IMG/VR virus record: IMGVR_UViG_2541047905_000001
DNA: 11,544 nucleotides
Direction: 5' to 3' (one strand)
Origin: a virus
Taxonomy: Monodnaviria > Loebvirae > Hofneiviricota > Faserviricetes > Tubulavirales > Inoviridae
This document shows, piece by piece, positions 5,624 to 10,813 of the stretch (position 1 is the first letter of the stretch; each line of letters opens with the position of its first letter). Below the pieces are notes generated by a model that was not told the DNA's origin, searched no databases, and saw only the letters and a program-made list of their open reading frames with translations. Made by a program: the position numbers and the translations under genes.

Positions 5624-5941
5624 ATGTCTAATTATGGTCTTTTTGTAAAAGGTAAAATGCTTGGTGCTCGCCAGCGTAATAAGGTCAATGGTCAGGGATA
5701 CTATAATGAAATTGGTGTTGGCTTAGAGATTCCTGATGGTTTTGGCGGCACTAAGCAAGACCAGATTATTATTCGTGTATCTCAGGCTCTTGTTAATGCC
5801 GGTGTAATGAATCAGGCAAATAATTTTATCGGTAAGTTAGTCCAGATACCTGTATATGTTCGCGTCTGGTCAATGGAGGGGAGGGAAGGAGTAACTTATA
5901 ACATTTCATCAGATGGCGGCATTACTGAAATAAAAGGCTGA
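5624..5941 (+). CDS. Probable ssDNA-binding protein (gV-like), 105 aa
   Basis: Small soluble ORF immediately after gII with an AGGAG RBS, at the position gV occupies in Ff-type genomes. Assigned by synteny and size, not by recognisable sequence similarity. Confidence 0.5.
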   Translation: MSNYGLFVKGKMLGARQRNKVNGQGYYNEIGVGLEIPDGFGGTKQDQIIIRVSQALVNAGVMNQANNFIGKLVQIPVYVRVWSMEGREGVTYNISSDGGITEIKG

Positions 5942-5943
5942 TT

Positions 5944-6195
5944 ATGGATACATCAGGTTTCGATATTCAGTTTGATAATCATATTCCTGAAAATGGTTAC
6001 CGTATTGAAGGTTATTTATGTAATGCGAACAATGCAAAAGAATGTCAGGCAATAATGGTACGTTCTGAACCATTTCATCAAATTGATTATTCTGCAATGG
6101 GAAATTACTGGACATTAGGTTTTGGCTCTGTCCTGCTGCTCTGGCTTTTTTCTGTAGGTGTGGGACAGGTAATAAAGATGGTTCGTACTGCTTGA
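5944..6195 (+). CDS. Small protein with a C-terminal transmembrane helix, 83 aa; possible minor virion protein at the gVII/gIX position
   Basis: Start overlaps the gV stop (TGATTATG). C-terminal hydrophobic segment YWTLGFGSVLLLWLFSVGVGQVI followed by KMVRTA. Assigned by position only. Confidence 0.45.
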   Translation: MDTSGFDIQFDNHIPENGYRIEGYLCNANNAKECQAIMVRSEPFHQIDYSAMGNYWTLGFGSVLLLWLFSVGVGQVIKMVRTA

Positions 6196-6229
6196 ATGCG
6201 AACCTTTAAAATGTAATGGAGATAGAGTT

Positions 6230-6463
6230 ATGTTTAAAAAAATCGTTAGTTTTCTGGCTGTACCTGCATTAATGGCTGTTTCTGGCGCGACTTTCGCTGC
6301 AGAAGGAGCGGCATCAAGTGGTGTTGATTTATCGCCGCTGACGAACAGCATTGATTTCAGTACAGTTCTGGTTGCGATTATGGCCGTTGCTGCTTCACTG
6401 GTAACACTTTATGCCGGTGTCGCTGGCGTTCGCTGGGTATTGCGTACCGTTAAATCCGCATAA
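6230..6463 (+). CDS. Major coat protein precursor (gVIII-like), 77 aa
   Basis: Classic architecture: signal peptide MFKKIVSFLAVPALMAVSGATFA, acidic mature N-terminus AEGAASSGVD, a hydrophobic helix, and a basic C-terminus RWVLRTVKSA. GGAG RBS 8 nt upstream. Confidence 0.8.
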   Translation: MFKKIVSFLAVPALMAVSGATFAAEGAASSGVDLSPLTNSIDFSTVLVAIMAVAASLVTLYAGVAGVRWVLRTVKSA

Positions 6464-6476
6464 ATTCATTATTCAT

Positions 6477-8240: not shown

Positions 8241-8252
8241 AGGAGTGCAACT

Positions 8253-8540
8253 ATGTTTGGGATTCTGATTAGTGCATTAAATACTTTGTTAGGTTTTGTA
8301 TTCCGGTCATTGATTATTAAATTCGTCGTATTCTTTGCGCTGTATTTTGTAGTCCAGGGCTTCGTTGAAATCCTTGTTGAGTTACTGCCAGATTCAAGCA
8401 ATCTCTCATCGCTGTTTGCCAATTTATCAGACGGATTCTGGTACTTCATTAACCTGAGTAAATTACCACAGGGGATTAGTATGATTATCTCCGCAATGGC
8501 TACTCGTTTTATTATTCGACGTATTCCTGTTATAGGGTGA
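8253..8540 (+). CDS. Minor coat protein (gVI-like), 95 aa, hydrophobic
   Basis: Position between gIII and gI. AGGAG RBS. Very hydrophobic translation with a composition and pattern resembling M13 pVI. Confidence 0.6.
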   Translation: MFGILISALNTLLGFVFRSLIIKFVVFFALYFVVQGFVEILVELLPDSSNLSSLFANLSDGFWYFINLSKLPQGISMIISAMATRFIIRRIPVIG

Positions 8541-8543
8541 GTT

Positions 8544-9569
8544 ATGGCTATTTCTGCATATATTGGCATACCCGGCTCAGGAAAAAGTTATGAAGCCGTT
8601 TGCAATGTCATTATTCCAGCATTTACCAGCGGCCGGAGAGTTGTGACGAACATTTATGGTTTACAAAAAGATAAAATCACCGAACGTTATCCTGATGCAA
8701 CGGGAGAAATTATTGTTGTGGATAATGATGATGTGCTTAAAGCAGATTTCTTTCCTTTTAAAGGTGGGGAAGGGAGTTTTTGCCAGTTTGGTGATTTAAT
8801 TGTTATTGATGAAGCATGGCGAATCTTCGGTAGCGATAAGGATATGACGGCTGAGAAGAAATCATTTATTGCTGAACATCGTCATTTTACGCACCCTGAA
8901 ACGGGTATTAGCTGTGATTTGGTTATTGTAAATCAGTCACTTTCTAATATTGCTCGCTTTCTGAAAGACAAAATAGAAACAACTTACCGGATGCGCAAGC
9001 TGAAAGCGTTAGGCCTGAATAATCATTACTGCATTGACGTATATTCAGGCCACAAAATCTATAAAAGCAACCTCGTCACCAGTTATCGCAATAAATATAA
9101 CCCTGATATTTTTGAACTTTACAAAAGCTATGAAGGAAATAACGGTAATGAAAAGCAGACAGATAAACGCCAGAGCATCTGGAATTCTGGCAAAGTCAGG
9201 TTCTTTCTTGTGCTTTTTCCATTGATGTTTATCGGGTCAGGCTGGCTGATTTACTCATTTTTCAGCACGTTTGGCCGAAGCGATCCCTCTCCAGATTTGA
9301 CTACAACAGATGTACGTGATGCGGCCATGTTTCGTTCTTCCGCTGTTACTCCAGCATCAGATACTCCCTCAGAACCAGCTGAACCGCCACTTTCAACCGA
9401 GTGGCGTATATCAGGGAGAATGACCAGTGAAGGCAGGGCGTTTGTGATTCTTGTTAACGGTGCCGGTGTTTTGCGTGCCGTTCCTGCATCCAGTTTTAAT
9501 TACAAAGGGATGTTGATGAGCGGAATTATTGATGGTGAGCGTGTGACGCTTTATACGGGGAAAAAATAA
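8544..9569 (+). CDS. Phage assembly ATPase (gI-like, Zot family), 341 aa
   Basis: N-terminal Walker A motif (AISAYIGIPGSGKSY), a Walker B-like hhhhDE motif (DLIVIDEAW), and an internal membrane-spanning segment (FFLVLFPLMFIGSGWLIYSFF), as in pI/Zot proteins. Confidence 0.85.
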   Translation: MAISAYIGIPGSGKSYEAVCNVIIPAFTSGRRVVTNIYGLQKDKITERYPDATGEIIVVDNDDVLKADFFPFKGGEGSFCQFGDLIVIDEAWRIFGSDKDMTAEKKSFIAEHRHFTHPETGISCDLVIVNQSLSNIARFLKDKIETTYRMRKLKALGLNNHYCIDVYSGHKIYKSNLVTSYRNKYNPDIFELYKSYEGNNGNEKQTDKRQSIWNSGKVRFFLVLFPLMFIGSGWLIYSFFSTFGRSDPSPDLTTTDVRDAAMFRSSAVTPASDTPSEPAEPPLSTEWRISGRMTSEGRAFVILVNGAGVLRAVPASSFNYKGMLMSGIIDGERVTLYTGKK

Positions 9570-10813
9570 TGAAAAAGATTTTACTCGCATTAACGCTACT
9601 ATTTTCTTCATGTGCTTTCGCAGGGTCAGAGCTTGAATTAAATAAAGTCAAGCTACCGGAGGCTATTTCTCTTATTTACAGTGAGGTGCTTAAAGTCCCG
9701 TATATGCTAGATCCACAGCTTGTTAATGATGAACGAATGATTACATTCAGGTTAACACCTGATATTGATGAACGGGAATTTGTAACCCGTTATCTTGGCA
9801 ATATGAACATTCGAATATGGACGAAAAAGGGTGTTGATTTTATCGCGCCCTATACGCCGAAAGAGCCGGTTAAGCCACGTTATACATGGACTTATACGCC
9901 TCAGTACCGCTCTGTTGCCTACCTGTCTGATATTCTTGGCGGCTACGTTTCAGGCTCCTTCAATAACAGTGGAGCCGTGATTTCTGACGATTCGCTAAAA
10001 GGTTCATCAGGGGCAAGCAACTACATCAATCGAACCGGTGATATTCTGGTTTATTATGGTACGAAAGAGGATATCGCCATCCTGAAAACACTGGTCACTT
10101 CGCTGGATACGATGAGTGATGAAGTGGTTGTTTCTGGTTATGTTTTTGAGGTTCAGACCTCGCAGTCTGACGGCTCCGGCATTCTTTTAGCGGCTAAAAT
10201 TCTGTCTGATAAATTCAATATTTCAGTTGGTGCTGCCGGACTGGATAATTTTATCAATATTCGAACCGGCTCCATTGATGCCATTTTCAATCTGCTGAAA
10301 ACCGACAGTCGTTTTACTGTTGTCAGTGCGCCACGACTGCGGGTAAAAAATAATGCCTCAGCGTCTTTTTCAGTCGGCTCTGATGTGCCAGTACTGGGCA
10401 GTGTTACGGTGAATAACAATACGACAACGCAATCCGTTGAATATCGTTCCAGCGGTGTTTTGTTTAACGTGACGCCATCAATCAAAAGTCGGACAATGGA
10501 TCTCAAGATTCAGCAGCAGCTTTCCAACTTTGTGACCACTGAAACCGGCGTCAATAACTCGCCAACCCTTATCAAGCGTGATGTAACAACCGAAGTCAGC
10601 CTTGCAGATGGTGATATTATTTTACTTGGTGGCCTTGCTGAACAGAAAGACAGTAAGGCCAGTTCCGGCTGGAGCTTCTTCGGTTCCCGTACCAGTGAAA
10701 GCAACAAGACTGATATTATGGTGATGCTTCAGGTCAGAAAGGTTGACCGGAGCAGGGCGACGCCCCGCAGCGCCGCGAGGAGCGGTGAACTGTTCCGGGA
10801 CAACCTGAACTGA
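9569..10813 (+). CDS. Outer-membrane secretin (gIV-like), 414 aa
   Basis: Start overlaps the gI stop (TAATG). N-terminal signal peptide (MKKILLALTLLFSSCAFAGSE) and C-terminal secretin-domain motifs (VVSAPRLRVKNNASASFSVGSDVPV, PTLIKRDVTTEVSLADGDIILLGGL). Confidence 0.85.
   Translation: MKKILLALTLLFSSCAFAGSELELNKVKLPEAISLIYSEVLKVPYMLDPQLVNDERMITFRLTPDIDEREFVTRYLGNMNIRIWTKKGVDFIAPYTPKEPVKPRYTWTYTPQYRSVAYLSDILGGYVSGSFNNSGAVISDDSLKGSSGASNYINRTGDILVYYGTKEDIAILKTLVTSLDTMSDEVVVSGYVFEVQTSQSDGSGILLAAKILSDKFNISVGAAGLDNFINIRTGSIDAIFNLLKTDSRFTVVSAPRLRVKNNASASFSVGSDVPVLGSVTVNNNTTTQSVEYRSSGVLFNVTPSIKSRTMDLKIQQQLSNFVTTETGVNNSPTLIKRDVTTEVSLADGDIILLGGLAEQKDSKASSGWSFFGSRTSESNKTDIMVMLQVRKVDRSRATPRSAARSGELFRDNLN

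Follow-up and report, generated by a model that had tools for sequence, protein, structure and literature searches.

Why does a filamentous prophage hold intact assembly and export genes beside a replication gene that is broken? This question is raised by an 11,544-nucleotide stretch of DNA (IMG/VR virus record IMGVR_UViG_2541047905_000001), hereafter the window, that contains an inovirus prophage. The replication initiator gene of the prophage, gII, is split by the insertion sequence (IS) IS4, and the morphogenesis and export module that follows, from gV through gIV, runs from 5624 to 10813. The initial annotation explained this arrangement either by a recent IS4 insertion or by retention of the assembly and secretion genes for a host-beneficial role. 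We propose, with a probability of roughly 0.85, that the window holds a solitary YpfΦ/CUS-1-type prophage at the dif site of a VR50-like Escherichia coli strain, that gII was recently hit by IS4 and that the module is intact as the insertion is young.

Identity of the prophage and disruption of gII

By its sequence, the element is a filamentous inovirus prophage of the already known YpfΦ/CUS-1 type, integrated at dif, an identity that the initial annotation missed. With IS4 excluded, its core (2423-3694 plus 5121-11544) shares 99.6% identity with the tandem YpfΦ prophage of Yersinia pestis NCTC5923 and 99.4-99.6% with the prophage of E. coli UTI89, and the module matches that of the prophage in E. 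coli VR50 at 5190 of 5190 positions. In 111 records the module recurs with an identity of at least 99%, and it is carried by 118 of 5,426 complete E. coli genomes, UTI89 included. A scan of one genome per species placed the same gIII in Y. pestis NCTC5923 (99% amino acid (aa) identity) and in Klebsiella spallanzanii, and exact module proteins were found in E. coli, Salmonella, Klebsiella, Citrobacter, Shigella and Yersinia in a larger protein collection. A DNA search of a phage collection returned just four short matches of 65-70% identity; YpfΦ and CUS-1 are evidently absent from that collection, and the missing close matches there are thus not a sign of novelty.

In the 8.7-kb YpfΦ genome, a divergent RstR-like repressor is followed by modules for replication, morphogenesis and secretion and, beside attR, by two open reading frames (ORFs) without a known function; over 7.1 kb the genome is 99% identical to CUS-1 of E. 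coli O18:K1:H7, with variable ORFs beside attL (PMC4266046). YpfΦ integrates at dif, regenerating an intact dif at the 3' end, and forms tandem arrays as well as episomal forms. It produces filamentous single-stranded-DNA virions, and disruption of a gene in the replication, morphogenesis or secretion module in each case abolishes them (PMC4266046).

In the window, the replication gene is inactivated, as the initial annotation stated: gII is split at codon 191 by a complete IS4 with a 13-bp target duplication. The N-terminal part of gII (3121-3694, + strand; 191 codons) matches the rolling-circle replication initiator family Phage_CRI (7.3e-62) over profile positions 1-187 of 232, and its called ORF extends to 3711 within IS4, gaining the residues VMPVS to give a chimeric product of 196 aa. 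The C-terminal part (5121-5612, + strand) contains the G2P_X_C domain (1e-34) at residues 64-147 of a 161-aa ORF called from ATG 5127. IS4 itself (3695-5120, - strand) has 18-bp terminal inverted repeats at 3695-3712 and 5103-5120 and a transposase ORF at 3708-5054 with Nterm_IS4 (3.1e-33) and DDE_Tnp_1 (3e-31) domains, and it is flanked by perfect copies of the 13-bp target duplication CACCAGATGGCAG at 3682-3694 and 5121-5133. The element thereby shows what defines IS4 itself, a member of the IS4 family, namely a length of 1426 bp, 18-bp inverted repeats, an 11-13-bp target duplication and a DDE transposase with the IS4 N-terminal domain, and it matches the length and ends of IS4 copies from two other E. 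coli genomes. When IS4 and one copy of the duplication are taken out in silico, gII becomes a 350-aa ORF again, with 1 nt of difference from the MINF_1D allele.

Could an assembler have misplaced IS4 into gII? IS elements often confuse short-read assemblies, and most contigs with the chimeric ORF end at the IS4 edge. However, the 13-bp duplication is perfect and the 1426-bp element is exact, and two independent isolate assemblies, the Logan contig L023 and the ENA contig L028 each span IS4 with identical flanks. The likelihood of an artefact is negligible.

What would the insertion do to the phage? The workings of such a module are established for the Ff phages and CTXφ and, taken with the YpfΦ knock-outs, are clear for this phage as well. 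XerCD recombination integrates the phage at chromosomal dif. During assembly, pV coats the single-stranded DNA, pVIII serves as the major coat protein, and pIII (PuvA) and pVI would cap the filament; the inner-membrane pI NTPase and the outer-membrane pIV secretin form the extrusion machine; the terminator after gVIII would boost the gV-gVIII transcripts, as in Ff phages. Transposition of IS4 into codon 191 of gII would deprive the phage of pII and hence of origin nicking and single-stranded progeny, for which a solitary prophage would in any case be a poor template. The prophage would then be immobile unless pII were given in trans. Furthermore, the end of IS4 contributes a terminator-like hairpin on the + strand (3699-3724); it probably halts transcripts that start at the gII promoter, which would make IS4 polar on the downstream operon and leave the downstream genes poorly expressed. 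Virion production is expected to be lost. By analogy with the internal gX start of Ff phages, ATG 5298, which follows GGGAG and lies just before the G2P_X_C domain, may act as a gX-like internal start; IS4 leaves 5298-5612 untouched.

Is codon 191 of gII a preferred target of IS4? IS4 is known for site selectivity. Three target sites were compared, namely those in the window (3670-3694 plus 5121-5133), L039 and L040: GGCAAAAAAGGG followed by CACCAGATGGCAG in gII, GGAAAAAATGGG followed by CACCATGGACCC in agp and GACAATGGT followed by CCCCTGATGGAG in a diguanylate cyclase gene. The gII target resembles the agp target (AAAAAAGGG followed by CACCA versus AAAAAATGGG followed by CACCA). It is possible that gII codon 191 is a recurrent IS4 target through which hosts repeatedly disarm the phage; this idea draws on the three sites and the known selectivity, and a literature look-up on IS4 target specificity found nothing relevant.

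Independent disruptions of gII were observed elsewhere. E. coli IAL7255 has a different IS at codon ~89 (L004, 3882-6035), and 37 contigs encode a 179-aa truncated gII product. In other sequences gII is called as two pieces, one of 130-178 aa and one of 161 aa, and some of these splits are probably sequencing errors.

Age of the insertion and intactness of the module

How old is the IS4 insertion? The prophage of VR50 is free of IS4 and, in comparison with the window after removal of IS4, shows two differences in ~10,100 bases, at 5309 (synonymous) and 5385, both in the C-terminal part of gII; none falls within the 5190 nt of the module. VR50 also has the same left flank and the same IS3::hipA junction, with an intact gII, and this common junction makes the window strain a close relative of VR50. 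At the E. coli substitution rate of ~2e-7 per site per year, we infer that the two prophages diverged at most a few centuries ago, and far less than one inactivating change is expected in 5.2 kb over that time. The downstream genes would thus be intact because the insertion is too young for mutations to have accumulated, and at near-zero divergence the intactness of the module says nothing on selection. The retention of the module despite the loss of the replication gene, on which the initial annotation built its alternatives, therefore carries no evolutionary signal, given 0 changes in 5190 nt relative to an IS4-free sister. A host-beneficial role finds no support at this locus, as a divergence of about zero cannot show selection.

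A recent insertion, the other explanation offered initially, is supported by the perfect target duplication, the restorable gII and the near-identical VR50 prophage, and also by the distribution of the disrupted allele. The gII::IS4 junction is present in 0 of the 5,426 complete E. coli genomes, and the chimeric 196-aa product occurs on 49 contigs from draft and metagenome assemblies, compared with at least 1000 contigs for one intact gII allele. For the module proteins, the exact secretin and the exact 570-aa gIII product are each on at least 1000 contigs and the exact gI product is on 983. An exact look-up of the 161-aa C-terminal part of gII (201 blocks) was rejected as a count of the IS4 allele because it is unspecific: this ORF is also called behind frameshifts and in error-rich long-read assemblies.

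Several points weigh against a young, lineage-restricted insertion that silences the phage. The IS4 allele is not private, since it occurs on 49 contigs and also turns up in 82 index blocks with gut metagenomes included, and the IS4 lineage has persisted and spread to some extent. The metagenome contig L022 has the same junction beside an intact hipA, and the metagenome contig L021 has it with a different cargo and is identical to the window from 2118 to the IS4 edge. If L021 and L022 are not chimeras, the insertion is older than assumed or recurrent. These contigs may be assembly chimeras, recombinants or independent insertions, and the occurrence of the junction in three genomic contexts was discounted as a sign of an old insertion because both contigs are metagenomic and possibly chimeric. 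Moreover, the loss of expression and of virions is a prediction from sequence, and internal promoters may keep the module expressed; a promoter scan found 16 sites versus 18.3 expected, a background level that is uninformative on internal promoters.

Does selection instead keep the assembly and export genes, such as those for the secretin, the Zot-family NTPase and PuvA, for a host benefit in colonization or virulence? A puvA mutant of E. coli K1 is less fit in vivo, and YpfΦ has a modest fitness effect in mice (PMC4266046). The presence of the IS4 allele on 49 contigs and the intact module in three of three long IS4-bearing contigs also point in this direction. However, all three contigs are 100% identical to the window and thus represent one clone rather than independent evidence of retention. 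The module shows no divergence from its IS4-free sister, so selection has had no chance to show, and IS4 is likely polar on the operon. In addition, about one-fifth of carriers have a gross module lesion, and gI, gIII and gIV are damaged in other strains. Domestication of this kind is highly improbable. We also see very little prospect that the replication-dead IS4 allele, as found on the 49 contigs, is stably inherited in gut E. coli and kept since PuvA, the secretin, Zot-family proteins or the defence-like cargo described below benefit the host.

How does the module fare among its relatives at large? Across 16 sampled loci, 76 synonymous and 38 non-synonymous distinct changes give a pN/pS of 0.15. 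These 16 loci were chosen partly for lesions, and the lesion tally in them includes copies merely cut by locus ends; lesion frequency was drawn from 60 of the 119 matching records, picked at even intervals. The phage is truly carried by 57 of the 60, with a full-length collinear best copy in 45 of the 57 and a truncated or deleted one in 12. Lesions found in individual strains include gII split by a different IS (IAL7255), gI::IS1 (TUM13881), a gIII +1 frameshift that affects one copy of a tandem pair (MS20658), internal gIV deletions (FP4), a gI-gIV fusion deletion (SCU-101) and a truncated partial upstream copy (VR50). The initial annotation named frequent inactivating mutations in related strains as the mark of neutral decay. 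This mark is present in part: lesions occur in about one-fifth of carriers and extend to gI, gIII and gIV, and most copies are intact.

Copies were also found outside the chromosome. E. coli TUM14759 has a circular 'untypable plasmid' of 9,565 bp (NZ_CP128883.1; L002, 1-9565) that consists of the entire phage, gII intact, and is most simply read as the replicative form captured in the assembly. The module is present at 99.9% identity, in two places in the record, on a 248-kb plasmid of Klebsiella pneumoniae (H145; NZ_CP132684.1, 66827-72016), which indicates that the phage can also reside on plasmids and crosses genera. From the contig counts and the TUM14759 circle, the phage is actively circulating, and the purifying selection on its module fits phage-level selection during transmission, with no sign of host domestication.

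What does this locus teach? Its discovery value is small, as experiments have already taken the modules of YpfΦ/CUS-1 apart and IS4 has caused a young knock-out that is restricted to one lineage. It carries a caution, in that intact genes beside a broken gene show selection only given time for decay, and here the 5.2 kb hold 0 changes. Strains like UMEA 3174-1 that bear IS4, together with IS4-free VR50, form a natural isogenic pair that could show whether the structural genes alter the fitness of the host even when no virions are made.

Integration site, module layout and cargo

The left end of the prophage is a hybrid dif (attL, 743-770, + strand) in which the XerC arm and 4 spacer nt (GGTGCGCATAATGTA) equal those of E. 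coli dif and are followed by phage sequence; the source contigs and Y. pestis share this junction. Beside it lies a 24-nt inverted repeat (763-822, + strand) with an XerD-arm-like TTATGTT and arms that are 88% complementary. By sequence comparison, this repeat is a putative remnant of the folded attP described for YpfΦ, for which paired Xer sites in inverted orientation have been reported (PMC4266046). An intact 28-nt dif is located 143 nt past the right end of the window in the window-identical contigs L019 and L020, and relatives have it 141 nt downstream of the orf65 stop; the last base of the window is the end of the orf65 stop codon. A dif scan within the window (at most 3 mismatches) found none, since the window stops short of attR and attL is hybrid. 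Two public contigs are identical to the window at 11544 of 11544 positions, those of E. coli UMEA 3174-1 (GCA_000460555.1) and GCA_045573325.1, and no second phage copy was found in the loci of these two contigs, which makes the prophage solitary. In the left flank (1-666), an IS3 copy is inserted in hipA, of which the 3' end alone is left, from 382.

Could the IS4-bearing copy still be transmitted, with a co-resident or superinfecting phage supplying pII, so that phage-level selection persists on the structural genes? This phage often occurs in tandem arrays and often superinfects, the window copy has its control region, attP remnants and every structural gene undamaged, and L021 combines the same junction with a different cargo, as recombination between co-residents would yield. 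However, the prophage is solitary and directly followed by dif in both window-identical isolate assemblies, no episomal IS4-bearing form was found and the sole episome seen has an intact gII. An IS4-enlarged genome of ~10.9 kb and a possibly chimeric scaffold also lend this idea no more than weak support. Continued transmission is therefore improbable, and we favour an immobile prophage whose module has not had time to decay.

Upstream of gII lie a helix-turn-helix (HTH) repressor gene, divergent from gII (2503-2949, - strand; HTH_3, 1.6e-9; PHROG 3557 transcriptional regulator, 4.1e-74), in the position of the RstR-like YPO2273, and, by inverted-repeat analysis, a 27-nt imperfect palindrome (2995-3051) that falls in the control region from which the repressor gene and gII diverge. 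Two ORFs follow gIV. The product of orf82 (10902-11150, + strand), near the attR end, is without an assigned function and found no Pfam or PHROGs family match; it is the YPO2280a homologue by position. The last phage gene before attR, orf65 (11347-11544, + strand; PHROG 6642, 1.2e-50), is the YPO2281 homologue by position.

How complete is the module? Seven consecutive + strand ORFs, those for gV, ORF83, gVIII, gIII/puvA, gVI, gI/Zot and the gIV secretin, occupy 5624-10813, and ~98% of the 5190 nt is coding. Spacers of 2, 34, 64, 12 and 3 nt separate them, except at the gI/gIV boundary, where the two genes share 1 nt. The tight packing described initially is evident, with TGATTATG read at 5939-5946 (gV/ORF83 junction), TAATG at 9567-9571 (gI/gIV junction) and a terminator 3' of gVIII. 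The initial gene assignments from gV through gIV likewise agree with the Pfam and PHROGs profile searches, in which the family matches lie far above chance. All seven ORFs are intact, with one qualification to the word complete: clear gVII/gIX equivalents were not found among the module ORFs with Pfam and PHROGs, and completeness in this respect is by analogy.

The gV product (5624-5941, + strand) is a single-stranded-DNA-binding protein (Pfam PF17426 Putative_G5P, 1.2e-52). ORF83 (5944-6195, + strand) encodes a small protein with a C-terminal membrane segment that belongs to a function-less family (PHROG 3679, 1.1e-32) and has no Pfam match in a profile search; it is undamaged in 22 of 22 sampled copies and, from its position, is a candidate minor coat protein of the gVII/gIX type. 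The major coat protein gene gVIII (6230-6463, + strand; PHROG 2186 virion structural protein, 4e-29) encodes a signal peptide that ends in TFA, an acidic N-terminus, a hydrophobic core and a basic C-terminus, and scores 18.9 bits against Pfam Phage_Coat_B, under the cutoff of 23.5 bits. The intrinsic terminator 3' of gVIII (6475-6497, + strand) is a 10-bp GC-rich hairpin followed by TTTTAC, with a folding dG of -16.3 kcal/mol and a z of -3.3 versus shuffles. Rfam searches found no RNA family at its gathering score.

The putative adsorption protein gene gIII, puvA of CUS-1 (6528-8240, + strand), matches PHROG 3942 (4.5e-253), a family of 546 positions without an assigned function that aligns from residue 28 of the 570-aa ORF. 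It has no Pfam domain, and the assignment comes from size, position and the literature description of puvA; the relative H126 carries the annotation 'PuvA domain protein'. Candidate starts are ATG 6528, ATG 6549 and GTG 6678, the last being that of RefSeq relatives, and translation from ATG 6549 would begin with a signal-peptide-like segment. In another frame, gIII is overlapped by a hydrophobic ORF of 27 aa (6514-6597) that has a GAGG ribosome-binding site. This ORF, a positional candidate for the pVII/pIX type that matched no family with an assigned function, could encode a small coat protein, or nothing.

Downstream of gIII, the minor coat protein gene gVI (8253-8540, + strand) matches DUF2523 (1e-20), PHROG 974 (6.6e-30) and an Ace-like PHROG (3.8e-7), and gIV (9569-10813, + strand) encodes an outer-membrane secretin with a signal peptide (PF00263, 1.3e-24; PHROG 1012 'assembly (protein IV of M13)', 8.1e-138). 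Between them, gI (8544-9569, + strand; PF05707 Zot, 2.2e-26; PHROG 197, 2e-93) encodes a Zot-family assembly NTPase with the Walker A motif GIPGSGKS, the Walker B motif LIVIDEA and a single membrane segment. Does gI also encode a Zot-type toxin, a possibility that was raised initially? This role is unsupported, as the N-terminal NTPase domain alone (residues 4-196) matches Pfam Zot. The best Vibrio phage match of gI among those listed is phage VGJ at 25.7% identity, and the match to the CTXφ-type PHROG is weak (2.3e-9) and ends at residue 281. The toxin-active C-terminal region of CTXφ Zot is presumably marked by an FCIGRL-type motif, and an IGRL motif was not found in the gI translation.

Phages that are otherwise 99% identical vary in the cargo they carry between attL and the repressor, and several variants have defence-like genes in this slot. 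In the window, the slot (843-2403, - strand) contains genes for an 88-aa DUF6953 protein (843-1109, - strand; Pfam PF22266, 1.8e-28) and for a 264-aa defence-like protein (1120-1914, - strand) with a C-terminal DpnII/MboI-type restriction-endonuclease domain (PF18742, 6.9e-59) and the PADLOC matches Aga_Helical-REase (1.3e-34) and PDC-S35 (3.6e-11). A 140-aa hydrophobic protein (1981-2403, - strand), which has no Pfam or PADLOC match, is kept among phage variants. The slot was compared with those in L003 (2580-3689), L008 (3014-3768), L030 (3414-4343) and L032 (5139-7524). L032 carries a SIR2_2 protein (PDC-S25, 2e-82), L030 an AbiJ_NTD4+DUF7014 protein (PDC-S32), L008 an ECs_2282 zinc-binding protein and UTI89 a 369-aa protein without a known function. 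A literature look-up found no description of a variable defence-like cargo slot. In the gut metagenome scaffold L021 (938-10627), another inovirus with Phage_coatGP8, DUF5455, Zot and secretin matches lies directly upstream of the YpfΦ/CUS-1-type copy, an arrangement that reflects either the tandem integration of two different phages at dif or a chimeric assembly.

Comparison with known filamentous phages

How does the prophage in the window relate to known filamentous phages? YpfΦ (CUS-2; YPO2271-YPO2281) has the same module order, comprising the repressor, gII, gV, gVIII, gIII, gVI, gI, gIV and two attR-side ORFs, and also integrates at dif, leaving an intact copy of the site at its 3' end. 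In contrast, the attL cargo of YpfΦ is YPO2271/2272, whereas the window has the DUF6953 protein and the DpnII/MboI-type nuclease protein, and YpfΦ forms a tandem array, whereas the window copy is solitary with IS4 in its gII. CUS-1 is represented by the UTI89 prophage, which we take to be CUS-1 from the serotype of UTI89 and from the review of these phages. It comes from the same species, occupies the same dif locus beside hipBA and has puvA as its gIII; it differs in its intact gII and in a single 369-aa cargo gene that replaces the two of the window.

CTXφ of Vibrio cholerae likewise depends on XerCD for integration at dif and forms tandem arrays (PMC4266046). Its gene order is similar, with a divergent repressor followed by the replication initiator, the major coat protein and the pIII-like, pVI-like (Ace) and pI-like (Zot) proteins. 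However, the two phages have no close sequence kinship, and CTXφ-type records fall below the matches listed for gI. The window phage is without toxin genes and encodes its own secretin, whereas CTXφ relies on the secretin of its host.

The Ff phages (M13, f1 and fd) are more distant. They are not temperate, their proteins are otherwise very divergent from those of the window phage, and gVII/gIX are not recognizable in the window. Nevertheless, the order gII(/gX)-gV-...-gVIII-terminator-gIII-gVI-gI-gIV is common to the Ff phages and the window phage, whose secretin falls in the PHROG of M13 protein IV.

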